A stretch of 64,000 nucleotides of DNA from Bacteroidales bacterium. Its GTDB lineage: Bacteria; Bacteroidota; Bacteroidia; Bacteroidales; DTU049. Below are positions 2,945-43,200 of the stretch, piece by piece. Both the position numbers and the translations under genes were made by a program. The stretch is from positions 9,013 through 73,012 of the forward strand of contig JAAYOU010000039.1 in assembly GCA_012520175.1 (NCBI GenBank). The letters run 5' to 3'. Below the pieces are notes generated by a model that ran no database searches, was not told the origin of the DNA, and saw nothing but the letters and a program-made list of their open reading frames with translations. Position 1 is the stretch's first letter. Each line of letters begins with the position of its first letter.

Positions 2945-3273
2945 ATCGCAGTTTGAAAGCGACTGTCGCCACGTAACTATCTATGTATCAACAACTTAGG
3001 AGGAACCGCCACACAAAACTATTGCCGCTGTAAACACCTGAGTATCAAGGACTTAGGCGGGCGGACACAAAAAGCTACTTCTGCCACGTAACTACCTGAT
3101 TATCAATGAGTTACGCCACCATTTCGACGCGACTCAATGAGCGGCAACCATGCAACCACCTGATTATCAGCAACTTACACAAACAAAGCGAGCGAACAGC
3201 GAGCCACAACTAAAAACTCAACACTAAGCACTAAAAACCACCTCGCAACTCCCTGACTATCAATAGCTTATAT
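2945..3273 (+). repeat. Modular extragenic repeat array, locus A (5 units of the 29-nt TGATTATCA palindromic element plus a terminal module)
   Basis: Units at 2972-3000, 3029-3057, 3087-3115, 3151-3179 and 3244-3272, all in the same orientation. Consensus is YRYAACYN-NN-TGATTATCA-R-NNNN-TTASR. The best copy is 3087-3115, CGTAACTACCTGATTATCAATGAGTTACG, with 7-bp outer arms CGTAACT/AGTTACG. Spacers are GC-rich (GCCGCC, GGCGG). The module CCACAACT...CACTAAAAACCA at 3204-3240 is shared with loci C and D. The last unit ends 2 nt before the stop codon of minus-strand gene 3274-6084. Related sequence (CAAGCGAG, ACTAAAAAAC, TTTGAAAG) may extend the element left to about 2850. Confidence 0.85.
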
Positions 3274-6084
3274 CTAATCCTCTACCTCACCATCATTACT
3301 AAAACAAATTACGCCATTATATGGGCAATAAAGGCAATTTTGTTTGTTTGTAGTTGCTTTAAATTGCTGCTCTTTGGAAAAAATTTCTTCTAAAATGCTA
3401 ATGCAATAGTTTGAAAATTCTGCTATTTCTTCTTTTGAAAAAACTTTAACATCATTTTCATTATCATAGATTACATCAGGCTTATAGCCATTTTTATTCA
3501 GCACAGAATAAATTCCGCCAGAAATTTTGTTCACATTATTAGAAGCCGAATACAGCCAGATATAAAATAAAACTTGAATTAAATATTGATTGTTTTTATT
3601 GAATAAATCAGCTATTTCAGAAGATTTCTTTTCTAAATTAAGGTCAAAGCGTTTATAAGTCGTTTTGAAATCCATTATATAATGAATGCCGTTCCTCACC
3701 TCAATTCTGTCTGCAATACCTTTTACTTTTACGATAGTTCCATCTTTCAAAGCAACATCAATGTCCAAACCATATTCCAAAGCCTCTAAATAAAAGTCAT
3801 TTGGAATATTTTCCGCCGATTTCTTCAAAAAAACATTCAGCGCGTCAAAAAGCAAATCCTTTACTAAAAAATTATATCCACTCTCAAAATGCGCCACTTC
3901 ATGTGTTATAAAAGCATCATTTAAGTTTTTTTCAACCGATGAAATCATTGAGTCAAAATCTTGTTTCAGCAAAACTCGCTTCAAATAAGGTTTTGAAATA
4001 TTTTCAATCGCTTCATGAAAAATATCGCCCATCGTATTGAACTGAATATCAGCATTTTTGTTTTCCCATTCCTTTATTTTATACACATTTTCCAAAAGGA
4101 ATTTATACGGGCATAAAACAAAATTAAAGAAAGCAGAAAAAGAAATCCCTTTTTGAGCCAATTCCTTCAATTTATTCTCTTTATCTTTTAAGGTAGAAAT
4201 ATTTTCAAGAGAATTTTCGCCATTGTATCCAATATCCAAGCTAATGCGATTGAAAGCGATATTTGAACTAGCCGGCAACAATTCATGCTCGATTTGAGCT
4301 ATATATCTCGAAGGTTCTTTCCCGAAAAGTGCGTCTGGCTCTGTATTGTAGATTATAACAATGTTTTCCGCACGTTGAATTAATCGCCAAAAATGATAAG
4401 CGTAAACCGAATCTCTGTCGCTTTGCAATGGCAGCTTCAATGCTCTGCGCAAATCTACAGGCAAAAACGAATCTTTATTCGCCGCAGCGGGCAAATTACC
4501 TTCATTAGCTCCGACTATAATTACATTTTTAAAATCTAAAGAACGAGTTTCGAGCATTCCTAAAATCTGAAGCCCTTTTATAGGCTCACCTTTCAAAGGA
4601 ATTTTCAACGATTGAATTTGGCGTTTTACGAAATACGAAAAAGCTAAAATATTTATATCCTTGTCTATATCATGCTTTTGAAATGTATTTATTAAAACAT
4701 TTAGCATTGTACGCATTTGCCAAGCAGCTTCATGCTCAATTTCTATTTCCACAGACCTTTCAAAAATCATGTCCATTTTAGAAATCAGCATCTCTGCAAT
4801 TGATTCCCAAGAATTATATGGAGAAAACAATCCGTTTGTAAGCTCATTAACTCGCTGTAACAAAGCGGAATCTTCTCTATTTTCGGCATTCCAATAAAAA
4901 AATCTAAATTTTCCCGAAGATATTACTTCGACACACTCTCTAAACTCGTGTATTTTGTCATCCTGAACAAGTAAATTCACTAATGGATTGGCTAACAGAG
5001 CTGAAAACGCATCGAAATGAAACACTATATCGCCTTTGCTGTGGCTTATAGCGTTAATCATTGCAAAATAATTTTTTATAAACTGCCCTGCAAAAGTATT
5101 CACCAAAGGAAAACCGCCTGAAATATTAACCTTATTGCTCCATTCGTTAGGCAAACTACTCAGCAATGGCATTAACAAAGACTCATCAGCAAGGACTAAA
5201 ACTGTATCGCTGAATTTATCAGAATAATCAGATTCTAATTTATTTAAAGCAACTTGTATCTGAGAGTAGCCCAAAGGAGCGCCAATAACCTCAATGTTTT
5301 TTTCATTATTTTTTATATGCTCCGCTGGTTCTTTAAACGTATCGGACCAAGAATAGCGATTTTGCCTCAAAAAATGTCCCGCTTCATGACTGAGATTATT
5401 CAAATACCACTTATCTGCATCCCAGACCATATCAGCTTTTCCATTTTCCAACAACAAGTCTATATGTTTTTTAAGCGAAGGAGTAATGGCGTTCAGTCCC
5501 GCAAAAATAACTTTAGAATATTCGTCAAAAGATTCTTTTTGAGACAACAACCTAGATGCAAGTCCTTGATAACCTATTTTATTTTCAATACAATTAGACG
5601 TAAACACCTCGTAAATAGGATGCAATAATTTATAAAAGCTCAAATATTTTTTCTGCAAATCAGTATTAGCCTCGCCGGGATACCAATTTTCTATTTCTCT
5701 AATTTTAAATAAATGCGTAAAAACCTCATCGGGATTGAGCAAATAATCGTCAACATCGTTAAAATCAGCTAAAATAGTCCTTCCCGTTGGTATGAACTCA
5801 TCGATTGGGAAGGCGTTGTCTTTGGAATAATTTTTATAGACATTGTAAAGCAAGGCTAGCAAAGCTGTTTCATCAATTTTGCGAATTCCGCTTTGCGAAA
5901 AAATATATTCTTCAATCGTAATAATATTTGGCAGCAAAACGGTTTTCTTAAAATAAGCAGGAAGAGTTTTTTTTAAATACAAACCGCTTCTTCTGCCCGG
6001 CAGCACGATTGCAGTGTTTTTTAAATCGTCGCCAGATGTTTCATAAATTATTTTTGCAAGTTCATCAATAAAACTCATAAGCAA
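3274..6084 (-). CDS. PD-(D/E)XK nuclease family protein, AddB/RexB-like
   Basis: 936 aa. The C-terminal nuclease block has LCPYKFLLENV, GIADRIE, YIMDFKTTY (D-x-K) and QNCLYCPYNGVIC (C-x2-C-x6-C). This is the AddB/Cas4-type arrangement of one upstream Cys plus a C-terminal Cys triad. Confidence 0.75.
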   Translation of the reverse strand: MLMSFIDELAKIIYETSGDDLKNTAIVLPGRRSGLYLKKTLPAYFKKTVLLPNIITIEEYIFSQSGIRKIDETALLALLYNVYKNYSKDNAFPIDEFIPTGRTILADFNDVDDYLLNPDEVFTHLFKIREIENWYPGEANTDLQKKYLSFYKLLHPIYEVFTSNCIENKIGYQGLASRLLSQKESFDEYSKVIFAGLNAITPSLKKHIDLLLENGKADMVWDADKWYLNNLSHEAGHFLRQNRYSWSDTFKEPAEHIKNNEKNIEVIGAPLGYSQIQVALNKLESDYSDKFSDTVLVLADESLLMPLLSSLPNEWSNKVNISGGFPLVNTFAGQFIKNYFAMINAISHSKGDIVFHFDAFSALLANPLVNLLVQDDKIHEFRECVEVISSGKFRFFYWNAENREDSALLQRVNELTNGLFSPYNSWESIAEMLISKMDMIFERSVEIEIEHEAAWQMRTMLNVLINTFQKHDIDKDINILAFSYFVKRQIQSLKIPLKGEPIKGLQILGMLETRSLDFKNVIIVGANEGNLPAAANKDSFLPVDLRRALKLPLQSDRDSVYAYHFWRLIQRAENIVIIYNTEPDALFGKEPSRYIAQIEHELLPASSNIAFNRISLDIGYNGENSLENISTLKDKENKLKELAQKGISFSAFFNFVLCPYKFLLENVYKIKEWENKNADIQFNTMGDIFHEAIENISKPYLKRVLLKQDFDSMISSVEKNLNDAFITHEVAHFESGYNFLVKDLLFDALNVFLKKSAENIPNDFYLEALEYGLDIDVALKDGTIVKVKGIADRIEVRNGIHYIMDFKTTYKRFDLNLEKKSSEIADLFNKNNQYLIQVLFYIWLYSASNNVNKISGGIYSVLNKNGYKPDVIYDNENDVKVFSKEEIAEFSNYCISILEEIFSKEQQFKATTNKQNCLYCPYNGVICFSNDGEVED

Positions 6085-7004: not shown

Positions 7005-7682
7005 ATGTACGCAATTGTAGATATAGCTGGACAACAATTTAAAGTTAACAAAGCTGGAAAAGTTTATGTTCATCGTTTGCAAGCCGAAGAAGGCAGCCAA
7101 ATAGAACTAAAAAACGTTTTATTAATAGATAATGACAAAAATGTTGAAGTTGGGAAACCAACAATAGCTGGTGCACATGTATTGGCTGAAGTTGTAGAAC
7201 ATTTAAAAGGCGACAAAGTATTAGTTTTCCACAAAAAACGTCGTAAAGGTTATCAAAAGATGAACGGACATCGTCAATATCTTACACGATTGAATATTTT
7301 ATCAATTGTTAAAGACGGTGTAAGCCTTACTGGAGACAATGCTCCTTCTGTAAAAAAACAAGTAAAAGAAGCAGCTCTAGCAAAAACAAAGAAAGAAAAA
7401 ATTGTTGCTAATAAAGAAGTTGAAAAAGAAGTTACTGCTGAAAAGAAAGCTGCTCCTAAAAAAACTACTACAACAAAAACAGCAGAAAAAAAAGCTGATA
7501 CCACTACAAAAAAAGCAACTACTACTACAGCTAAAAAAACAACCTCTACAACTAAAAAAGCAACCACTACAACTAAAAAAGCAACTACTACTACAAAGAA
7601 AGATGCTACTACAACAACTAAGAAAACAACAGCTACAGCAAAAAAAGAAGATGGAGATAAAAAATCAACATCAAAGGAATAA
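7005..7682 (+). CDS. rplU: 50S ribosomal protein L21 with a long Lys/Thr/Ala-rich C-terminal extension
   Basis: MYAIVDIAGQQFKV...HRQYLTRLNI is a canonical L21 domain (~103 aa). It is followed by ~120 aa of low-complexity KKATTTT-type repeats. Confidence 0.95.
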   Translation: MYAIVDIAGQQFKVNKAGKVYVHRLQAEEGSQIELKNVLLIDNDKNVEVGKPTIAGAHVLAEVVEHLKGDKVLVFHKKRRKGYQKMNGHRQYLTRLNILSIVKDGVSLTGDNAPSVKKQVKEAALAKTKKEKIVANKEVEKEVTAEKKAAPKKTTTTKTAEKKADTTTKKATTTTAKKTTSTTKKATTTTKKATTTTKKDATTTTKKTTATAKKEDGDKKSTSKE

Positions 7683-7970: not shown

Positions 7971-8001
7971 TTTTTACCTGCTTAAAAAAAAGGTTACTGT
8001 A

Positions 8002-8035
8002 AAAACACTTTTCTAATTGAAAAGTGTTTTTTTTG
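8002..8035 (+). terminator. Rho-independent terminator after rpmA
   Basis: 12-bp stem AAAACACTTTTC (8002-8013) / GAAAAGTGTTTT (8019-8030), loop TAATT, followed by a T-run to 8034. Confidence 0.8.
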
Positions 8036-8071
8036 TTGATGTTTTTTTAGATGTTTAATGCTCTGTCGCTG

Positions 8072-8268
8072 CATAACTATTTGATTATCAATATTTTAGA
8101 CAGACGCACCCATACAAAACAGCCCGCCACCACGTAATTACTTGAGTATCAGTGGTTTAGACATGACGGGTGCCGCCTCGTAACTATCTGATTATCAACA
8201 ACTTACGCGGAGCCGTCGCCAACACGAAGCCCGCCACCACGTAACTAATTGATTATCAGTATATTACT
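8072..8268 (+). repeat. Modular extragenic repeat array, locus B (4 units)
   Basis: Units at 8072-8100, 8133-8161, 8179-8207 and 8240-8268 in the same orientation, with GC-rich spacers. B2-B4 with their spacers (8133-8268) align by eye with C2-C4 (10296-10430). The array ends 21 nt beyond the stop of minus-strand gene 8289-9005. Confidence 0.85.
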
Positions 8269-8288: not shown

Positions 8289-9005
8289 TTAGTGAGTTAT
8301 TTTATAGTTTAATTTTTTCCTCATTTTACGAATCTCTTTTTTAGACAAAAAACTTCTTTTTACAAAATCTTGATACAGGTATGGTTGTTCAAAATAGTCG
8401 TAATCAGCTCCTTTTGCATAAATTGGATTATTTATTCTATATGTTACAAAATAATTTGATATATCAAAACACATGAAGATATTTTCATATAACTTCGCTT
8501 TATTTTTATCTTGAATTTGAAATTGAATAGTTTTTAAGCCTAAAGTATCTTTAAAATTTATTGGCAAATTTGTTGCGAAAATAATTTCCCAGTCTTGAAA
8601 ATTGTAAATGAAGTATTTCTTAAAATTAGAATAGCCATAAATATTTTTACTAGATTTTTTAACAATTTCAAATAAAAATGAATACCATTCTTCAAAATCT
8701 AAATTTTCAAACCTTGAAAAATCGTATTTTTCATATACACTATCTTCTATAAGATTAGTAGGAACAGCTATTATAACAAACACGACATAATTATTTTTTT
8801 CATTTTTATTAAAATCTCTATTTAAATATTTTAAATAATATTGGAAAGCTATTTTTATTTTAAAATCAATGTCCTTTAGTTCAATAGCATTTATAGTTAC
8901 TGAATCTGTTGTTTCATCTACCTTGTTGACAAAAAATTGCCCATATATCGGTGTGCATAAAACACTTAATATAATTAAAAATAAAATTTTGCTTGCATTA
9001 ATCAC
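8289..9005 (-). CDS. Hypothetical secreted protein (paralogue of the N-terminal part of 8998-10110)
   Basis: N-terminal signal-like segment ILFLIILSVLCTPIYGQ. The block YSFLFEIVKKSSKNIYGYSNFKKYFIYNFQDWEIIFATNLPINF parallels FSLFYDVIIETLHKSKRSFFSDYKYYYNHNDIDVLISSKAPINF in the upstream gene. Very AT-rich by eye. Confidence 0.6.
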   Translation of the reverse strand: MINASKILFLIILSVLCTPIYGQFFVNKVDETTDSVTINAIELKDIDFKIKIAFQYYLKYLNRDFNKNEKNNYVVFVIIAVPTNLIEDSVYEKYDFSRFENLDFEEWYSFLFEIVKKSSKNIYGYSNFKKYFIYNFQDWEIIFATNLPINFKDTLGLKTIQFQIQDKNKAKLYENIFMCFDISNYFVTYRINNPIYAKGADYDYFEQPYLYQDFVKRSFLSKKEIRKMRKKLNYKITH

Positions 9006-10110
9006 GATTTCCCTCTCCTTCTATTTTATAATCTGTGTCCGGATAAATTATCTCAATTTCTGTTAAATAAACCTCTATAATTGCTGTTGTATTTTTTTTA
9101 ACTTTAATACCTTGACATGTATATGCGCTATATCCTATACTTTTAATTGTAACATTATAAACACTAGGATTCAACTCTAAAGAAAATTCACCATCATGAT
9201 TTGACATAGCATGATTTATTAATGTTCGATCACTATATTTTTTTACTTTTACTAAAGCAAAACGAACAGGTTCTTTAGTTTCCAAATCATATAATTTACC
9301 AATTATAGCAGAAGTGTCTGAATCAATATATTTAACTTTAAAGAAACTTCCTTCTTTTTCAATAACCTTATATCCATAATAATCTAATTCTGTTGATTTC
9401 GTAATTTCAACAGTCTTATAAAAATTATCACAATAAGATGTATCTGCAGGATTGTAAAAATGCAAAGCTTGATAAGATTCATCTTGATTAAACTGGTAAT
9501 ATGTAGCATTAGGAAAATAAGATGTAATAGTATCATTGTATTTTTCCATATCCCCTAGTTTCAACTTAGCCAAGTTTTTTTTTAAATAAAAATTAATTGG
9601 TGCTTTAGAACTAATTAACACGTCAATATCATTATGATTATAATAATATTTATAATCTGAAAAAAAAGATCGCTTTGATTTGTGAAGTGTTTCAATAATT
9701 ACATCATAAAAAAGAGAAAAATCTTGTTCTCTTGAAAAAATTGTATCCTTGTATAAAGAATCTATATAAGATTCTAAGAAATCAGACTCATGGCTTAATG
9801 AGCTTATAGCCCAATTAGGATGTATTTCAATAGAAATAAACATATCACTATTCATATGCAAGCTTCTTTTATTGCATACATTTATATGATTTATTAGCAT
9901 TTCTGATAAAATAGGGGTTAGAGTATCAATTTCACTAACATTGTATAAAACGTAATTTTTATATACATCTACATTGTAATTTTCATAATCGTAATTTTCA
10001 TAATCAATGTATCTCTTTTGTTTTTGGCTAAATAGTGTAGTTGGAATTACAAGTATAGCAATCAAAAAATATAATATTGCCTTATTTTTATCTTTTAACT
10101 TTATAATCAT
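8998..10110 (-). CDS. Hypothetical secreted protein with a C-terminal carboxypeptidase-regulatory-like (CarboxypepD_reg) beta-sandwich
   Basis: Signal/TM segment AILYFLIAILVIPTTLFSQ. The C-terminus IGKLYDLETKEPVRFALVKVK...SNHDGEFSLELNPSVYNVTIKSIGYSAYT fits the CarboxypepD_reg pattern. It overlaps the downstream gene by 8 nt. Confidence 0.6.
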   Translation of the reverse strand: MIIKLKDKNKAILYFLIAILVIPTTLFSQKQKRYIDYENYDYENYNVDVYKNYVLYNVSEIDTLTPILSEMLINHINVCNKRSLHMNSDMFISIEIHPNWAISSLSHESDFLESYIDSLYKDTIFSREQDFSLFYDVIIETLHKSKRSFFSDYKYYYNHNDIDVLISSKAPINFYLKKNLAKLKLGDMEKYNDTITSYFPNATYYQFNQDESYQALHFYNPADTSYCDNFYKTVEITKSTELDYYGYKVIEKEGSFFKVKYIDSDTSAIIGKLYDLETKEPVRFALVKVKKYSDRTLINHAMSNHDGEFSLELNPSVYNVTIKSIGYSAYTCQGIKVKKNTTAIIEVYLTEIEIIYPDTDYKIEGEGNRD

Positions 10111-10251: not shown

Positions 10252-10551
10252 CACAACTCTTGATTATAAACGTTTTACGCGAAGCAGCCGTGTCGCACAA
10301 CTAGTTGATTATCAGCGGTTTAGACAGGGCGGGCGCCGCCTCATAACTACTTGATTATCAGCAAGTTACACAGAGTCGCCGCCAATGCGAAGCCGCCACT
10401 TCACAACCCATTGATTATCAGCACTTTACGCAAGCAAGCGAGCTAATAGCGAGCCCCAACTATGTCTTATCCTGAAATAGGTTGACACTAAAAAACTAAA
10501 AACTAAACACTAAAAACTATTTCCCAACCACCTGATTATCAACAAGTTACA
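10252..10551 (+). repeat. Modular extragenic repeat array, locus C (5 units, terminal module and ACTAAAA heptamer tract)
   Basis: Units at 10252-10279, 10296-10324, 10342-10370, 10402-10430 and 10523-10551. The module GAGCCCCAACT...CACTAAAAACT lies at 10454-10518. It includes tandem ACTAAAAA/ACTAAAA/ACTAAAC/ACTAAAA at 10487-10519. The array lies 39 nt beyond the trxB stop and upstream of gene 8998-10110. Confidence 0.85.
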
Positions 10552-10589: not shown

Positions 10590-11540
10590 TTAAATATCTC
10601 TTGTTGCGATAAAACGCTCTGCATCAATAGCAGCCATGCAACCTGAGCCAGCAGCAGTAATAGCTTGTTTGTAATTAATATCTCTAACATCGCCAGCAGC
10701 AAAAACGCCTTTAACGCTAGTGCATGTGGAGTCTGGCAAAGTTTTTATATAGCCATTTTCGAACATTTCTAATTGTCCTTTAAAAATTTCAGTATTAGGA
10801 GTATGACCAATAGCTACAAAAACGCCATCAAGCTCAATTTTAAGTTCTTCGTTAGTTTTTACGTTTTTCACAACAATAGCTGTAACATTTTTAGCAAAAC
10901 CTTTTTTTTCGCCTAGAATTTCAACAGGAATTGAGTTCCAAACAGGCTCAATATTAGGAGTATTAAAAACTTTTTGCTGCATCGCTTTTGAAGCTCTAAG
11001 CTCATCGCGTCTATGAATTAGATAAACTTTTTTTGCTAAATTTGATAAATACACAGCTTCTTCAGCAGCGGTATCGCCACCACCAATTACACAAACAACT
11101 TTTCCTTTATAGAAAAATCCATCACAAGTAGCACAAGCCGAAACACCAAATCCGTTGTATTCTTTTTCGCTAGGCAAGCCCAACCATCTAGCTGAAGCGC
11201 CAGTAGCAATAATTACAGTTTCAGCCAATATATTTTGACCTCTATCGTCAGTAAGGCTAAAAGGGTATTTTGAAAAATCAACTTTTTCTATAAGTCCTGA
11301 TCTTATTTCTGTCCCAAACCTCAGTGCTTGTTTTTTTAAATCTTCCATCATTTCTACGCCTGTAACGCCATCTGGATATCCCGGAAAATTTTCAACATCA
11401 GTAGTAATAGTCAATTGCCCTCCAGGCTGCAAGCCTTCGTATAAAACAGGTTTTAATTCAGCTCTTGAAGAATAAATTGCTGCTGTGTATCCTGCGGGTC
11501 CAGAGCCAATAATCACACATTTTCTTTTTTCAATTTCCAT
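10590..11540 (-). CDS. trxB: Thioredoxin-disulfide reductase
   Basis: GSGPAGYTAA FAD motif, redox-active CATCDG, GGGDTAAEEA NADPH motif, 316 aa. Confidence 0.95.
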   Translation of the reverse strand: MEIEKRKCVIIGSGPAGYTAAIYSSRAELKPVLYEGLQPGGQLTITTDVENFPGYPDGVTGVEMMEDLKKQALRFGTEIRSGLIEKVDFSKYPFSLTDDRGQNILAETVIIATGASARWLGLPSEKEYNGFGVSACATCDGFFYKGKVVCVIGGGDTAAEEAVYLSNLAKKVYLIHRRDELRASKAMQQKVFNTPNIEPVWNSIPVEILGEKKGFAKNVTAIVVKNVKTNEELKIELDGVFVAIGHTPNTEIFKGQLEMFENGYIKTLPDSTCTSVKGVFAAGDVRDINYKQAITAAGSGCMAAIDAERFIATRDI

Positions 11541-33648: not shown

Positions 33649-36600
33649 ATGAAGAAATTAATTTTAGTATTGATAGTTTTAGCATTGCAAACAAGCATAA
33701 TTGCTCAAGATTTCAAATACAGCAAACAAAAAGCTATTTTGCTTGAAAACAAAGGGCAGCTAAGCAATACAGATGGCTCTTCTGCTGACAATGTGCTTTA
33801 TTACATGATAACTCCAAACATGAATTTTTACATAACAAATTCTGGAGTTACCTACGTTTTTAAAGGACATTTCTTTAAAGAGGATTCATCATCTGTAAAT
33901 TCAATTAATTTATTAAAAGATAAAGAGCAGATTACAAAATGGCATCGTGTTGATGTTGATTTAGTAGATGCAAAAATTGAAAAATCTTCTATAAATCAAA
34001 AAAATCTAAATACTGAACATGTTGTTAATTACTACAACCATTTAATGCCCGATGGAGTTGGAGATTTAATACCTTTGGAAAATGTTACATTAAAAGATGT
34101 TTATCCGGGAATAGACTGGGAATTTGTGGTTAATGATGAACATTTAGAATATAATTTTATTTTGAATAAAAAAGCTGATATATCTAAAATAAAGCTGCAT
34201 TACAAAGGACAAGACAAAATTAGTTTGGAAAATAATAGTGTAAAAATTGAAACAAAATATGGTTCTTTAATTGAAAAAGAAATTGTTTCTTTTACTTCAA
34301 AAGGAAGAAACGCTACAATAAACGCAGTGTTAAAAGACAATGAATTAAGCTATAATCCTGTTTCTGTACCAAAAATACTTGATGATGAAACATTAATTAT
34401 TGACCCACCCTTAATTTGGTCAACTTTTTATGGAGGTTCTGGAAGCGAAAATAATGTAAAAATGACTATGATTAAAAATTCTGGTGATATTTTCGTTGCA
34501 TTAACAACAAGTTCTAGCAATTTTCCTTTACTTTACCCAGGAGGCTCATCATATTATGACAATACTTATCATGGTAACAATGATATAGCTCTTTTTAATT
34601 TTAATAAAAATGGCGCTTTAAAATGGAGTACTTATTATGGAGGTTCTAGTGGAGATTCTGCTTTTAACCTATGTAATAATGGTCTTATTGTTTTTGTAGT
34701 AGGTAGAACTCGTTCAGCTGACTTCCCTACTATGGCACCTCCATCAGGTGGATATCTTGACCCTACATTAGGTGGATACAAAGATGGATTTATTATTGCT
34801 TTTAATGCTCTTACACGTCAAAGATATTGGGCTACATATTTTGGTGGATCTTTTCCTGATATAGTAGAAGGTTATACTGAAGAAAATACCACAGCTTGCG
34901 CGTGCAAAGGAATTAATCTATATATTACAGGAACTGCTTCTTCAAATGATTTTCCTATTGTAACTTTTCCTGGTGCAGACACTAAAACAACTATGAACGA
35001 TGGTGCATATCCAAACCCAGCTTCTGGTAGATATTTTACAGATGCTTATCTAAGCCTATTTACTATTGCAGGTGCTATGGGAACCGAAATACAACTAGTA
35101 TGGAGTACCTTTGTTGGTGGTAAAAACAGAGATATTGATCCTGAAATTTTATTAGATAACGCAAACAATATAACATTGGCATATACTACCACTGATGGCG
35201 GAGATATAACTCAAATAAATACATTAAGCCCTCCAGGTTTTGTTGGAACATATAATAATGGTATTGATATTGCTTTTACTAGATTTGACTCTAACAAAAA
35301 ACTTGTATGGCAAACATATATAGGCAGCACAGGTGCTCAAACTTATGCTCAAGCCATGGTAAATAATAGCAGTAATGAATTCTTTGTTGCTGGATCAGCT
35401 AGAGGAACTATAACAACAAGAAATGATATTGGAGCAAGCTATTATTACAATACCAAAAAAGGTAGTGTCAGTGATGCTTTTTTATTAAAATTTAATTCTA
35501 ATTGCCAACTAGTATATGGTTCTTATTGGGGAGGAAAAACTAACCAAAACTATTCTAGAGGATTATGTTTAGATAAAAATAACAATTTATTACTTGTAGG
35601 TCAAACTCTAGGTGCTACAGGCAATGATGGCTTAATTTACAAACCATATCCTGGCTCTTATGTTGATAGCACTTATAACGGCAGCAATGATGGAGTAATT
35701 TTAAAGCTATCTCCTACATTAAGCCCAATATGGGGTACTTATTTTGGAGGAAGTGGAGGTGAGGTTATTTATGATATAGAAGCAAATAATGACGATGAAA
35801 TATTCATTTTAGGAAGAAAAGAGGATGCTAATGCCACAGGCTTTCCAATTGTAAACTTACCAGGTGCGTATAACGACTCTCCCCCCTCAAGCAGTGATGC
35901 TTTTTTGGCAAAATTTATCCCCTGCCCTACAAATTTCGGCTCTATATCATCAGGAACAGACTCTGTTTGCTATGGACAAAAAGGTACAATTAGTGCAGAT
36001 GGAGGTAATGCATATTTATGGAGTACTGGAGAAACAACAAGTTCTATAACACCTACTATTGTATCTGATTCAACATTTATTGTTACATCAATAAACACAT
36101 TAGGTTGTGAAGATAAAGACACTTTTAATATTAAAGTAAAACCTCTCCCTGTTTTGAGTTTTACAGGCACAACCACTGTATGCTTAGAAGATACAGTTAA
36201 ATTGACTGTTAGCGGTGGAACATCTTACCTATGGGAAACAGGACAAACTACACCAAATATTTCTTTTGTGCCAACAATAAGCGATTATATTTCTGTTACC
36301 GCAACAAATAATTTTGGATGTTCAAAAAAAGATAGTGTTGCCTATACTGTTCATCCGCTCCCAACACCAAGCATTTCAGGTGCAAGTGAAATCTGCTCAA
36401 AAGACACATTAACACTAACAGCATCAGGTGGAGATACATATTTGTGGTCTAATGGAGTAATCACAGCTATAAATAACATTGTTTTAGATACATCTGGCAA
36501 TATTAATTATTATGTAATTGCAACAAACACACATAATTGCAAAGATACAGCCTTTCATACCTTTACAGTTAATCCATTACCTGTAATAGATTTAGGTAAC

Positions 36601-38373
36601 GACACTTCTATTTGCGATGGCACTAGCATTATTCTTGATGCTGAAAACCCTGGCTCTACATATGCATGGAATACAACCGAAACAACACAAACAATTTCAA
36701 TTAATACTACTGGAGAATATTCTGTAACAGTAACTGACGTTAACTCCTGCAAAAGCAAAGACACAATGAATCTTGTTGTGCTACCTAATGCCGATGCAAC
36801 AATTACAGATGTGCCTGCAATTTGTATAGACGGAACTCCATTCACATATATTGTAGCTGAAGCAGGCGGAACTTGGACAGGAACAGGAATTTCTCCTACT
36901 GGAAACTTCGACCCAAGTATTGGTACCGGTAATTATGAATTTATTTACACTATTGCAGGACAATGCGGCGATGCTGACACAACGAATATTACTGTTAATC
37001 CTCTGCCTATTGTAGATTTAGGCAACGATACTACTATTTGTGATGGCACTAGCATTATTCTCGATGCTGAAAACCCTGGCTCTACATATGCATGGAATAC
37101 AACCGAAACAACACAAACAATTTCAATTAATACTGCTGGAGAATATTCTGTAACAGTAACTGACGTCAACTCTTGTACGAACAAAGACACAATGAATCTT
37201 GCTGTGCTACCTAATGCCGATGCAACAATTACAGATGTACCTTTTATCTGTATAGACGGAACTCCATTCTCATATATTGTAGCTGAAGCAGGCGGAACTT
37301 GGTCAGGAACAGGAATTTCCCTTACAGGTGATTTCGACCCAAGTATTGGTGTTGGCGATTATGAATTTATTTATACTATTGCTGGAAAATGTGGCGATGT
37401 TGATACAACGAATATTACAGTCAATCCTTTGCCTGTAATAAATTTAGGCAATGACACATCTATTTGTGATGGCACTAGCATTATTCTCGATGCTGAAAAC
37501 CCTGGTTCTACATATGCATGGAATACAACCGAAACAACACAAACAATTTCAATTAATACTGCTGGAGAATATTCTGTAACAGTAACTGACGTCAACTCTT
37601 GTACGAACAAAGACACAATTACTATTGCTGTGTTGCCTAGCGCTGATGCTACTATTACAACAGATGTACCTTTTATATGTATGGACGGTGCTCCTTTTAC
37701 CTATATCGTAGCTGAAACTGGTGGAACTTGGGCAGGAACCGGTATTTCTACAACCGGAGATTTTGATCCAAGCATTGGTGCTGGAACTTATAATTTCACT
37801 TACACTATTGCTGGAAAATGTGGCGACACCGATGCTACAAGCATTACTGTTGGAGAGTTACCTATCATAAACTTTATCGCTACTAATGAAACTTGTGAAG
37901 ATAAAAGTGATGGATCATTATTGCTAAATATTACAGGTGGAACTTTACCCTACCAGTATTTTCTTGATTCTATACCTATTTCTGAATCAACAAATAATTT
38001 GATGCCGGGTAATTATCTACTTACTGTTATAGACAATAATAATTGTTCCCAAAGCGATAGTGTATTTATTTTAGCAGGGGATTTTCCTTGCGATGAAAAT
38101 GTTAGATTCTTTATCCCCAATATTTTTAGCCCCAACAACGATAATAACAATGATGTGTTATATGTGAAAAGCGAATTTATTAAAAATTTAGAATTTATGA
38201 TTTATGATAGATTTGGGAATGTCGTTTTTGAATCTAAAGATATTAATATAGGCTGGGACGGAAAATATAAAGGAGAACCTGCTGAAGAAGGTGTATATTT
38301 CTGGGAAATTAAAGCCATTATGATAGACAATACAGAATTAAATAAAATCGGCAATACAACCCTAGTCCGTTAA
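33649..38373 (+). CDS. Large T9SS-secreted adhesin-like protein (SBBP beta-propeller repeats, Ig-like repeat modules, type-B gliding-motility C-terminal sorting domain)
   Basis: Signal peptide, then repeated W(S/A)TY(Y/F)GG... propeller motifs. Cys-containing ~70-aa and ~142-aa tandem modules follow. The C-terminus FIPNIFSPNNDNNNDVLYV...GWDGKYKGEPAEEGVYFWEIKA fits the TIGR04131-type CTD. Confidence 0.9.
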   Translation: MKKLILVLIVLALQTSIIAQDFKYSKQKAILLENKGQLSNTDGSSADNVLYYMITPNMNFYITNSGVTYVFKGHFFKEDSSSVNSINLLKDKEQITKWHRVDVDLVDAKIEKSSINQKNLNTEHVVNYYNHLMPDGVGDLIPLENVTLKDVYPGIDWEFVVNDEHLEYNFILNKKADISKIKLHYKGQDKISLENNSVKIETKYGSLIEKEIVSFTSKGRNATINAVLKDNELSYNPVSVPKILDDETLIIDPPLIWSTFYGGSGSENNVKMTMIKNSGDIFVALTTSSSNFPLLYPGGSSYYDNTYHGNNDIALFNFNKNGALKWSTYYGGSSGDSAFNLCNNGLIVFVVGRTRSADFPTMAPPSGGYLDPTLGGYKDGFIIAFNALTRQRYWATYFGGSFPDIVEGYTEENTTACACKGINLYITGTASSNDFPIVTFPGADTKTTMNDGAYPNPASGRYFTDAYLSLFTIAGAMGTEIQLVWSTFVGGKNRDIDPEILLDNANNITLAYTTTDGGDITQINTLSPPGFVGTYNNGIDIAFTRFDSNKKLVWQTYIGSTGAQTYAQAMVNNSSNEFFVAGSARGTITTRNDIGASYYYNTKKGSVSDAFLLKFNSNCQLVYGSYWGGKTNQNYSRGLCLDKNNNLLLVGQTLGATGNDGLIYKPYPGSYVDSTYNGSNDGVILKLSPTLSPIWGTYFGGSGGEVIYDIEANNDDEIFILGRKEDANATGFPIVNLPGAYNDSPPSSSDAFLAKFIPCPTNFGSISSGTDSVCYGQKGTISADGGNAYLWSTGETTSSITPTIVSDSTFIVTSINTLGCEDKDTFNIKVKPLPVLSFTGTTTVCLEDTVKLTVSGGTSYLWETGQTTPNISFVPTISDYISVTATNNFGCSKKDSVAYTVHPLPTPSISGASEICSKDTLTLTASGGDTYLWSNGVITAINNIVLDTSGNINYYVIATNTHNCKDTAFHTFTVNPLPVIDLGNDTSICDGTSIILDAENPGSTYAWNTTETTQTISINTTGEYSVTVTDVNSCKSKDTMNLVVLPNADATITDVPAICIDGTPFTYIVAEAGGTWTGTGISPTGNFDPSIGTGNYEFIYTIAGQCGDADTTNITVNPLPIVDLGNDTTICDGTSIILDAENPGSTYAWNTTETTQTISINTAGEYSVTVTDVNSCTNKDTMNLAVLPNADATITDVPFICIDGTPFSYIVAEAGGTWSGTGISLTGDFDPSIGVGDYEFIYTIAGKCGDVDTTNITVNPLPVINLGNDTSICDGTSIILDAENPGSTYAWNTTETTQTISINTAGEYSVTVTDVNSCTNKDTITIAVLPSADATITTDVPFICMDGAPFTYIVAETGGTWAGTGISTTGDFDPSIGAGTYNFTYTIAGKCGDTDATSITVGELPIINFIATNETCEDKSDGSLLLNITGGTLPYQYFLDSIPISESTNNLMPGNYLLTVIDNNNCSQSDSVFILAGDFPCDENVRFFIPNIFSPNNDNNNDVLYVKSEFIKNLEFMIYDRFGNVVFESKDINIGWDGKYKGEPAEEGVYFWEIKAIMIDNTELNKIGNTTLVR
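36571..37851 (+). repeat. Three in-frame tandem repeats (426, 426, 429 nt) inside the adhesin gene
   Basis: Repeat starts at 36571, 36997 and 37423. Each encodes NPLP(V/I)(I/V)(D/N)LGNDT.ICDGTSIILDAENPGSTYAWNTTETTQTISINT.GEYSVTVTDVNSC...ITV. The 159-nt cores 37035-37193 and 37461-37619 differ at one position by eye. Confidence 0.95.
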
Positions 38374-42519: not shown

Positions 42520-43200
42520 GGCTATGTCCTGAAAAGCATGTTATATTTTATTTCGCTTGTTGTGTTTTCGGTCGTTTCATATGGTTATGGTAACGTAAAG
42601 TGCTGATAATCAAGCAGTTACGTGGCTATGACTGCGGCGGCGTAAAGTGCTGATAATCACATAGTTACGTTTGCCCGCCTGCTTGGTGTCCGCACCAGCC
42701 TAAGTCGTTGATAATCAGAGAGTTGCAAGCCGCCGCCGCTTTGCCTGTCTTGCTTTGCTTGCCCGCGACCACCTAAATTGCTGATAATCAACAAGTTGTG
42801 TGTACTAGCTGATTTAAATTGGCTTTTCTGCAAAATTTTTTGTAAATTTTAAACTACAAAAAATTTTGCAGAAAAAATTAGCGGATAAGTTTTTTTGTGT
42901 ACCCTGTTTCGCTCGAGCCTGCGTAAACCACTGGTAATCAAGCAGTTACAAGTCGCCGACCCGTCCACCCACCTAAATCATTGACAATCAGGTAGTTACA
43001 CAACGCCGCCACAACTCAACACTAAAAACCATTTTGATTTCGGACTTTCCGCCATTGCAAGTCATTGATTATCATACAGTTACAGAGCAGCTGCGACTTT
43101 CAAACTTTACAAACCCTTCAACAAGTTCAGGGCATCGCTTTACAAACTAAGACCCAGCAAGTCCTTAATAAAAAAGCACTTACAAATCAATCCGTATTTT
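42520..43200. repeat. Modular extragenic repeat array, locus D (7 units in mixed orientation, terminal module, inserted hairpin and decayed half-units)
   Basis: Six units read TGATAATCA on the + strand at 42594-42622, 42641-42669, 42699-42727, 42772-42800, 42922-42950 and 42972-43000. One unit is in the opposite orientation at 43056-43084, preceded by the module CCACAACTCAACACTAAAAACC (43009-43030). The left edge CTATGTCCTGAAAAGC (42522-42537) resembles locus C 10460-10480. Positions 43085-43200 hold degenerate half-units. The array starts right after the stop of the symporter gene. Confidence 0.85.
42824..42875. repeat. Perfect 21-bp inverted repeat (52-bp hairpin/miniature element) inside array D
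   Basis: TTTTCTGCAAAATTTTTTGTA (42824-42844) and TACAAAAAATTTTGCAGAAAA (42855-42875) are exact reverse complements around the 10-nt loop AATTTTAAAC. Abutting flanks are AATTGGC (42817-42823) and AATTAGC (42876-42882). Confidence 0.9.

Follow-up and report, generated by a model that had tools for sequence, protein, structure and literature searches.

A symmetric IHF-like site as the repeated unit of intergenic arrays in a Bacteroidales chromosome

What are the short palindromic units that recur, four to seven at a time, in four arrays (A-D) on the chromosome of an uncultured Bacteroidales bacterium, and which kind of protein may read them? The arrays lie in a stretch of 64,000 nucleotides, the window of this analysis (GenBank assembly GCA_012520175.1, contig JAAYOU010000039.1, positions 9,013 to 73,012 of the forward strand), which is AT-rich chromosomal DNA of about 32% G+C from biogas-fermenter metagenomes. 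An initial annotation had noted that the right half of most units equals the core consensus of sites for Escherichia coli integration host factor (IHF) and had proposed that arrays of phased sites could be loading or bending platforms for proteins of the HU/IHF family. Our analysis confirms and extends the observation on the units and partly supports its interpretation. Judged from sequence comparison, the reading we favour, at a rough probability of 0.42, sees the arrays as a Bacteroidota-restricted, lineage-expanded interspersed repeat whose unit would be a selected, symmetric double-stranded site, with a homodimer of HU/IHF fold as its most likely putative binder.

The repeat unit and its symmetry

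Aligned on their centres, the 21 units of the window read TAAcTnnyTGAT-T-ATCArnnnnTTA, a 25-bp dyad whose halves share the central T/A; the unit as a whole measures about 30 bp, of which the conserved site rTAACTnnyTGAT(T)ATCArnnnnTTAy spans 25-27 bp. Positions that vary from unit to unit coincide with the free NNNN of the IHF consensus (WATCAR-NNNN-TTR) and conserved ones with its specified positions. In array B (8074-8266, + strand), which consists of four units with GC-rich spacers downstream of the rpmA terminator, B1 (8074-8098, TAACTATTTGAT-T-ATCAATATTTTA), B3 (8181-8205, TAACTATCTGAT-T-ATCAACAACTTA) and B4 (8242-8266, TAACTAATTGAT-T-ATCAGTATATTA) carry the IHF core in both halves and B2 (8135-8159, TAATTACTTGAG-T-ATCAGTGGTTTA) in the right half only, all on the + strand. 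Over the four arrays the right half matches WATCARNNNNTTR in 18 units rather than the 17 counted initially: C1, D5 and D6 do fail, as had been said, while D7, listed with them, matches as AATCAATGACTTG (and the two examples given at the time were placed one base too high, the correct positions being 8193-8205 and 3101-3113). What had been missed is the left half, whose opposite strand gives an exact match in 14 of the 21; 12 units carry the core on both halves and 20 on at least one. A shuffle control, proposed with the original observation and run here, puts these matches far above chance: WATCARNNNNTTR occurs 45 times in the window as against 16.96 +/- 4.22 times (29 at most) in 100 dinucleotide-preserving shuffles. 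Of these 45, 32 fall within the 1379 bp of the arrays, and the remaining 13 in some 62.6 kb are at chance level (about 16.6 expected). Consistent with this, a search of the 64 kb with a position weight matrix derived from the units returns precisely these 21 sites and no solitary one elsewhere.

A known site to compare with is lambda H', the 35-mer GGCCAAAAAAGCATTGCTTATCAATTTGTTGCACC, whose nicked strand is made of 15+20 nt. According to published accounts of the IHF-H' complex, the DNA is kinked twice at a distance of 9 bp, the nick in the crystal falls 1 bp 3' of the left one of the kinks, and the T altered in H'44A, which belongs to the TTR element, is 6 bp away from the kink closest to it. 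Combined with the H' sequence, this assigns the kinks to T|T and A|A, and the pseudo-dyad then coincides with the W of WATCAA. With the dyad on W, a homodimer that reads both halves would prefer YAA-N4-Y-TGAT-W-ATCA-R-N4-TTR, which is the unit, and the dyad of the unit is its central T, i.e. the W of both half-sites. Half by half, the units agree with the E. coli IHF site (WATCARNNNNTTR; lambda H', PDB 1IHF) as to which positions are specified and which are free, and they share its dyad-on-W register. Scored against the unit matrix, lambda H' reaches its best value in exactly this register and within the top 0.05% of random 35-mers, and over 25 bp 15 of the 19 specified positions are shared (counted by hand), the A-tract of H' supplying the mirrored 'AA'. 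Our comparison thus supports that both halves of the unit carry the IHF core in the register to be expected of one two-fold symmetric dimer of the HU/IHF type seated on the central T.

The two sites are not identical. While E. coli IHF sites are asymmetric and join a consensus half to an A/T tract, which is because IHF is a heterodimer, the units of the window are symmetric, and a consensus in both halves implies a homodimer. Where the E. coli site has TTR, TTA is almost invariant in the units, and their left arm keeps an additional C-T (AACT), two bases by which conservation does reach beyond the IHF core, as had been cautioned from the outset. The point made along with it, that the palindrome suggests a dimeric binder, is correct as well and is compatible with the IHF reading rather than in competition with it. 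What does not stand is the idea of phased sites: centre-to-centre distances in the window are 45-64 bp with outliers of 73-150 bp and are not helically phased. So the IHF reading keeps a core match that is real, well beyond chance and present in both halves, and loses the phasing.

Could the symmetry instead reflect a hairpin, as in repetitive extragenic palindromic (REP) elements? Among 318 distinct chromosomal units, Watson-Crick complementarity at variable symmetric positions equals expectation (0.25-0.46 observed against 0.21-0.50 expected; at three of these positions 0.30/0.28, 0.25/0.21 and 0.31/0.28), and 229 viral units display a slight excess only. RNA folds of single units are weak (mean z of -0.6), amount to 0 kcal/mol in six of the 21 window units, and the central TGAT-T-ATCA cannot close a hairpin loop. 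Given no covariation, weak folds and this centre, the unit has the properties of double-stranded DNA recognised by a two-fold symmetric binder, and on the covariation counts we rejected a REP-like hairpin. A structured RNA family was considered too and rejected, as the window has no Rfam match at gathering score and relaxed thresholds return chance-level matches only; an Rfam scan of related loci finds nothing on the units.

Four arrays as copies of one composite

Array A (2974-3270, + strand) lies between convergent genes and has five units (A1 2974-2998, A2 3031-3055, A3 3089-3113, A4 3153-3177, A5 3246-3270). Array C (10253-10549, + strand) also has five (C1 10253-10277, C2 10298-10322, C3 10344-10368, C4 10404-10428, C5 10525-10549), with C1 degenerate, and array D (42596-43082, - strand) has seven (D1 42596-42620, D2 42643-42667, D3 42701-42725, D4 42774-42798, D5 42924-42948, D6 42974-42998, D7 43058-43082). 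Within the arrays, units are mostly in direct orientation - D7, whose central base is A, looks inverted - and spacers measure about 20-70 bp (from centre distances of 45-93 bp). Between D5 and D4, array D is split by a perfect 21-bp inverted repeat (42824-42875, TTTTCTGCAAAATTTTTTGTA / TACAAAAAATTTTGCAGAAAA, 10 nt between the arms), for which Rfam gives only spurious matches of miRNA type.

All four arrays can be aligned with their units following in one order and with parts of the GC-rich spacers matching as well; array C has spacers homologous to those of array B over units 2-4 and to those of array A in the tail that separates unit 4 from unit 5. This tail, a stretch without units between the last two units of A and C (3178-3245 and 10429-10524), reads AAGCGAGC.AA.AGCGAGCC.CAACT and continues into 7-bp AACTAAA-type repeats (Tandem Repeats Finder: 3208-3238 and 10491-10519). 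On the other side, a 'head' module (43083-43143, - strand, AAGCGATGCCCTGAACTTGTTGAAGGGTTTGTAAAGTTTGAAAGTCGCAGCTGCTCT) precedes D7, recurs before arrays in two metagenome contigs of a related organism (L273, L330) and has partial copies before A1 (about 2948-2972) and B1 (about 8050-8071). Shared unit order, spacers and the A/C tail show that the arrays are copies of one composite rather than independent clusters, and the tail in particular that whole composites, not single units, were copied. Identity between arrays is 71-81% for the units as against 50-61% for the spacers. Arrays may thus grow by tandem duplication, with units conserved while spacers drift, and whole composites of 4-7 units may then be dispersed to new intergenic sites.

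How this fits the chromosome can be seen from a relative (locus L337) which keeps the gene order Plug-DUF4249-trxB-rpmA-rplU-...-NTP_transferase-PDDEXK, albeit the nearest relatives share only 77-78% TrxB identity with the window. Between trxB and rpmA the relative has a gap of 168 bp (10954-11122 in L337), whereas the window has array C, two extra genes and array B; the two genes (8289-10110, - strand), bracketed by these direct homologous arrays, code for a protein of 238 aa and unknown function and for one of 370 aa with a CarboxypepD_reg domain. Synteny with L337 ends at array A. The window has counterparts of 99.98-100% identity among contigs of several digester samples, and since this holds for all ten contigs with the same rpmA, they are uninformative on strain-level variation.

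Genes that flank the arrays are ordinary housekeeping ones (rplU-rpmA, trxB, and genes for a PD-(D/E)XK nuclease, a sodium:solute symporter and a TPR histidine kinase), and array B is preceded by an ordinary terminator hairpin of rpmA (7983-8049). The neighbouring gene for ribosomal protein L21 (7005-7682) codes for 225 aa of which only residues 1-101 form the L21 domain; the remainder is a repetitive extension that stems from A-rich tandem repeats of 18-66 bp (7423-7648), and L21 of the relative has 186 aa. Further along, an open reading frame (ORF) of 1574 aa (33649-38373) contains three tandem copies of a 426-bp repeat (36563-37826, 87% matches).

Among known repeat families, bacterial interspersed mosaic elements (BIMEs) of the BIME-1/RIP-RIB type resemble the units in kind: both are interspersed, intergenic, multi-copy and clustered short palindromes with an IHF-type site and without coding capacity, and the analogy with enterobacterial BIME/RIP repeats drawn in the initial annotation seems reasonable. 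In BIMEs, however, the IHF site sits in the linker of REP hairpins with a GTAG-type tag, while here the repeated unit is itself the IHF-like site; BIME units alternate in orientation, whereas ours are mostly direct and lack hairpin covariation. Units start with rTAAC, not with GTAG or CGTC as REP tags do, and REP palindromes are linked to RAYT transposases (see also PMC3733652). In the clustered ORFs that flank units we saw no RAYT gene and no recurrent transposase-like neighbour. The arrays are also like Neisseria Correia elements, small non-coding intergenic repeats with a site for a host factor (IHF). Correia elements have 26-bp terminal inverted repeats and a TA target duplication. No terminal inverted repeats were found to flank arrays A-C, which sets them apart from Correia elements and led us to reject a Correia-type element or miniature inverted-repeat transposable element. 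In being tandem repeats of 25-60 bp with one dyad-symmetric site each, the arrays resemble sopC of the F plasmid and the iterons of lambda ori. Such arrays occur once per replicon and bind a protein encoded by the element, unlike the window with four arrays in 64 kb of chromosome and a motif that is phylum-wide. Most likely, then, the arrays belong to a repeat family that has a host-factor site in common with BIME/RIP or Correia elements but differs from them in that its unit itself is this site, symmetric and mostly direct-oriented. A CRISPR array can be dismissed; units differ at many positions within an array, spacers are homologous between arrays and no cas family matches among the array-flanking genes of the window.

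Occurrence in Bacteroidota genomes, phages and ICE-like contigs

Is the unit peculiar to this organism? We scanned genomes (one per GTDB species) with a two-unit pattern of fixed spacing range, which gave at least 120 loci, counted as true units those with a matrix score of at least 14, and scanned IMG/VR with a single-unit pattern (at least 120 viral contigs). Among the loci listed, true units are confined to Bacteroidota, except for two in a contig labelled Eubacteriales (L109); the remaining matches in other phyla arose by chance and contain no unit. Units occur in at least four orders, Cytophagales (Bernardetiaceae, Arcicella and a metagenome-assembled genome (MAG) of Microscillaceae with 5-14 units per locus of 7-8 kb), Chitinophagales (Sediminibacterium, Saprospiraceae, Lewinellaceae), Bacteroidales (Alistipes, Rikenellaceae, Paludibacteraceae, Lepagella) and Flavobacteriales (Capnocytophaga), and their core consensus is the same in all four despite unrelated flanks. 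String searches of the literature found no description of the core in Bacteroidota, nor did Rfam yield one of the motif.

In the Microscillaceae MAG, 148 of 174 units lie outside called ORFs and in gaps of every type (5'-5', 5'-3', 3'-3'), with no bias in orientation relative to the flanking genes (94 same, 96 opposite; 45/51 and 49/45). In several genera of Chitinophagaceae, two inverted units 52 bp apart form a conserved palindromic element, about 105 bp long, which precedes rplM by 130-180 bp (L008 2829-3150; L024 560-870; L120 750-1065). These pairs keep the consensus only in the outer half of each unit and have A/T tracts as inner halves, and unit pairs in Alistipes are built in the same asymmetric way. 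A long array is found on a metagenome contig (L334 1589-2955), where 26 conserved units with a period of 40-50 bp alternate with mostly unique spacers of 13-25 bp next to small phage-like ORFs. This array is superficially CRISPR-like; some of its neighbouring spacers are alike, as is to be expected from tandem duplication and subsequent drift.

Units of the viral contigs listed are intergenic, too (219 of 237); many follow the preceding stop codon by no more than 20 bp, with another 100-300 bp to go until the next gene starts. Genes nearby code for single-stranded DNA-binding protein (SSB), primase, clamp loader, DnaD-like loader, homing and HNH endonucleases and methylases. Since integrase genes did not appear among these viral neighbours, a link to attP was discarded. 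In two contigs (L139 6370-6640, L170 230-490), two abutting units stand directly beside two DnaA boxes (TTATCCACA), and in L139 these lie in a divergent early region upstream of a replication-initiator gene, which gives them an origin-like look and a likeness to lambda ori iterons. Contigs L194, L202 and L301/L324, phages or elements akin to integrative and conjugative elements (ICEs), have a composite palindrome in nearly every gap between small co-directional ORFs, about 110 bp long and built as [outer inverted repeat][unit][GC-rich palindrome][unit][outer inverted repeat]. With outer inverted repeats around an inner module, those of L301 and L194 resemble Correia elements; L194 and L301 encode DUF932 proteins, L194 and L202 phage-type lysozymes. 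We regard it as a possibility that the [unit][GC-rich palindrome][unit] composites are boundaries of exchangeable gene modules. In L194 there also is a match to a tmRNA fragment (5996-6061), as at integration sites of mobile elements.

Units thus have contexts that are also those of IHF sites in E. coli and other Proteobacteria: origin-like phage regions with DnaA boxes, phage early regions and replication modules, interspersed intergenic repeats and the upstream region of a ribosomal protein operon. That phages and ICE-like contigs carry the site singly, abutting or paired around a GC-rich palindrome is to be expected if mobile DNA exploits a host factor.

A putative homodimer and its alternatives

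If a homodimer of HU/IHF fold is the binder, it would place both of its beta-arms in the minor groove across TGATWATCA and kink the DNA at two steps, y|T and A|r, that are 9 bp apart. TTA / TAA, at 10-12 bp from the dyad, would be the point at which it clamps each flank, and the site in effect would be the E. coli IHF site mirrored about its W position. Arrays of such sites may act as DNA-bending or nucleoid-protein platforms. We infer protein binding, the HU/IHF fold of the binder and the function of the arrays, the latter by analogy with BIME/RIP. As to who the binder may be, Bacteroidota have a small clade of classical HU/IHF proteins which includes BHFa, the host factor for CTnDOT integration (PMC5499826; PMC6606824), and E. 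coli IHF replaces BHFa in vitro (PMC2034462). Another candidate is an IHF-like protein of 96-97 aa (P0007), whose best 120 matches are 91-97% identical and, where named, come from Flavobacteriaceae/Flavobacteriales; its best solved match is single-chain IHF, and IHF models give it slightly higher scores than HU models do, with every score below the curated cut-off. Its gene lies between a divergent mutY and the gene for RNase G (rng) in one flavobacterial locus (L251-L256, 2501-2794). A viral contig (L162) combines a perfect palindromic unit (GCTCTAACTTGTTGATTATCAATGAGTTAGAGC, 8308-8335) with a 173-aa protein that has an IHF-beta-like domain (11008-11529), 2.7 kb away.

Several points weigh against this reading. 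Part of the geometric (dyad-on-W) argument depends on the oligonucleotides of 1IHF and on their numbering. The P0007 protein has GRNISKN where HU/IHF have GRNPxTG, which by eye aligns Ile with the intercalating Pro, and there is no unit in the promoter region of its flavobacterial gene, a negative that is uninformative for motif-rich lineages. No HU/IHF gene is found in the window or near units in the 120 genome loci examined. Where variants come from ICE-like contigs or phages, their centre drifts to TTGA-NNN-TCAA (e.g. TTGATACTCAA) and WATCAR is broken in one half, and phage units that abut at 25-29 bp leave tight room for proteins which wrap about 35 bp. The nearest relatives have no unit in the roughly 20 kb around trxB in each, save for one weak partial match below cut-off (L335). 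With the motif absent there and with window sites found only inside arrays, a selfish, lineage-expanded repeat fits better than a general nucleoid-organising code, and the motif is not a general regulatory code of every Bacteroidota genome. Finally, the TTGATTATCAA core is present in two papers on streptococcal FabT, which suggests that unrelated folds can read the same core. FabT, of the MarR family, binds TTGATTATCAA.

This last point leads to an alternative we hold to be unlikely, albeit not negligible, namely that the unit is the operator of another symmetric dimer - a MarR-like winged-helix protein, a global regulator or a partition-type protein of mobile elements - and that its likeness to IHF sites is convergence on an A/T-rich palindrome. 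Dyad symmetry would suit any dimer, the abutting sites in divergent phage regions resemble tandem operators or iterons, and intergenic placement in ICE-like and phage contigs is near-regular, which recalls multi-site regulators of the KorB type. Yet a motif that chromosomes of several orders share with ICE-like contigs and with phages of very different kinds should have a conserved host protein as its binder, and no regulator gene was found to recur beside units in the loci and contigs listed. Moreover, sites are found in convergent 3'-3' gaps and at no fixed distance from the Bacteroidota -7 box, and the outer TAA/TTA at +/-10-12 with four free positions in between is a pattern specific for IHF. 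Among other known elements, a Bacteroidota sigma-A promoter was rejected for lack of a positional peak of TAnnTTTG (-7) around 641 units, a LexA-like SOS box since the published palindromes of Bacteroidota (GGA-N5-TCC / CTAA-N5-TTAG) differ from the unit (PMC8565304), and Fur, FNR, DnaA box, parS, dif and hix because spacing or flanks misfit (compared by eye).

More improbable, to our judgement, is that the unit is a site of recombination or transposition, with two 9-bp inverted arms (TAACTnnyT) around a 7-bp overlap (GATTATC) in the layout used by tyrosine recombinases, and that arrays are ends, scars or cassette boundaries. Such a role would suit the patchy, lineage-expanded distribution, the two genes without syntenic counterpart between direct homologous arrays B and C and the synteny break at array A, although the relatives, at 77% TrxB identity, are too distant to show an insertion event. 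The outer ATAACT arm resembles core arms of lox and lambda. In addition, the 110-bp composite palindromes between small co-directional ORFs superficially recall integron attC or pdif modules, and unit ends (RYRTAAC ... GTTAYRY) differ from those of attC (RYYYAAC ... GTTRRRY) by one mismatch per core (by eye). Against it speaks that the proposed overlap is palindromic and, phylum-wide, the best-conserved part of the unit, which is unusual for crossover regions; that no integrase or transposase recurs beside units, be it in clustered flanking ORFs or among viral neighbours; that arrays A-C lack terminal inverted repeats; and that sites at one locus upstream of rplM, solitary there, occur in several genera, which argues for a stable functional site. 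Single-stranded structures, that is RNA hairpins (terminators, RNase processing) or single-stranded DNA hairpins (promoters or priming sites on transferred or packaged DNA), are very improbable: 44 of 147 phage units between co-directional genes do follow the preceding stop codon by 20 bp or less, their orientation is mildly biased (88:59), whole arrays fold with RNA z-scores of -1.1 to -3.0, and units of L194, L202 and L301 are near-perfect palindromes with 13-bp arms inside longer ones, beside DUF932 genes, but the covariation and unit-fold data above and the Rfam result speak against a hairpin, chromosomal units have no orientation bias relative to genes, and array B follows a terminator that rpmA already has.

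We therefore stay with an HU/IHF-type homodimer as the preferred binder of the unit. One may go further and envisage a single conserved host bender of this type, possibly from the 96-aa family with Ile for Pro, on whose site phages, conjugative elements and selfish repeats have converged; in this wider form the proposal is tentative and rather doubtful. To our knowledge, little seems known about sequence-specific nucleoid or host-factor proteins in Bacteroidota. If this wider reading is true, the motif would be the first defined DNA code of a nucleoid or host factor in this phylum and a genome-wide marker for origins, control regions of mobile elements and repeat expansion. As a mirrored IHF palindrome it offers a concrete probe for finding the binder protein and its specificity, and it can flag control and origin regions of phages and ICEs in metagenomes. 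In its own right, the family is an apparently undescribed interspersed repeat at which, in some Bacteroidota genomes, assemblies break and synteny ends, and should a protein of another kind prove to be the binder, the motif would still define a widely exploited DNA-protein interaction.

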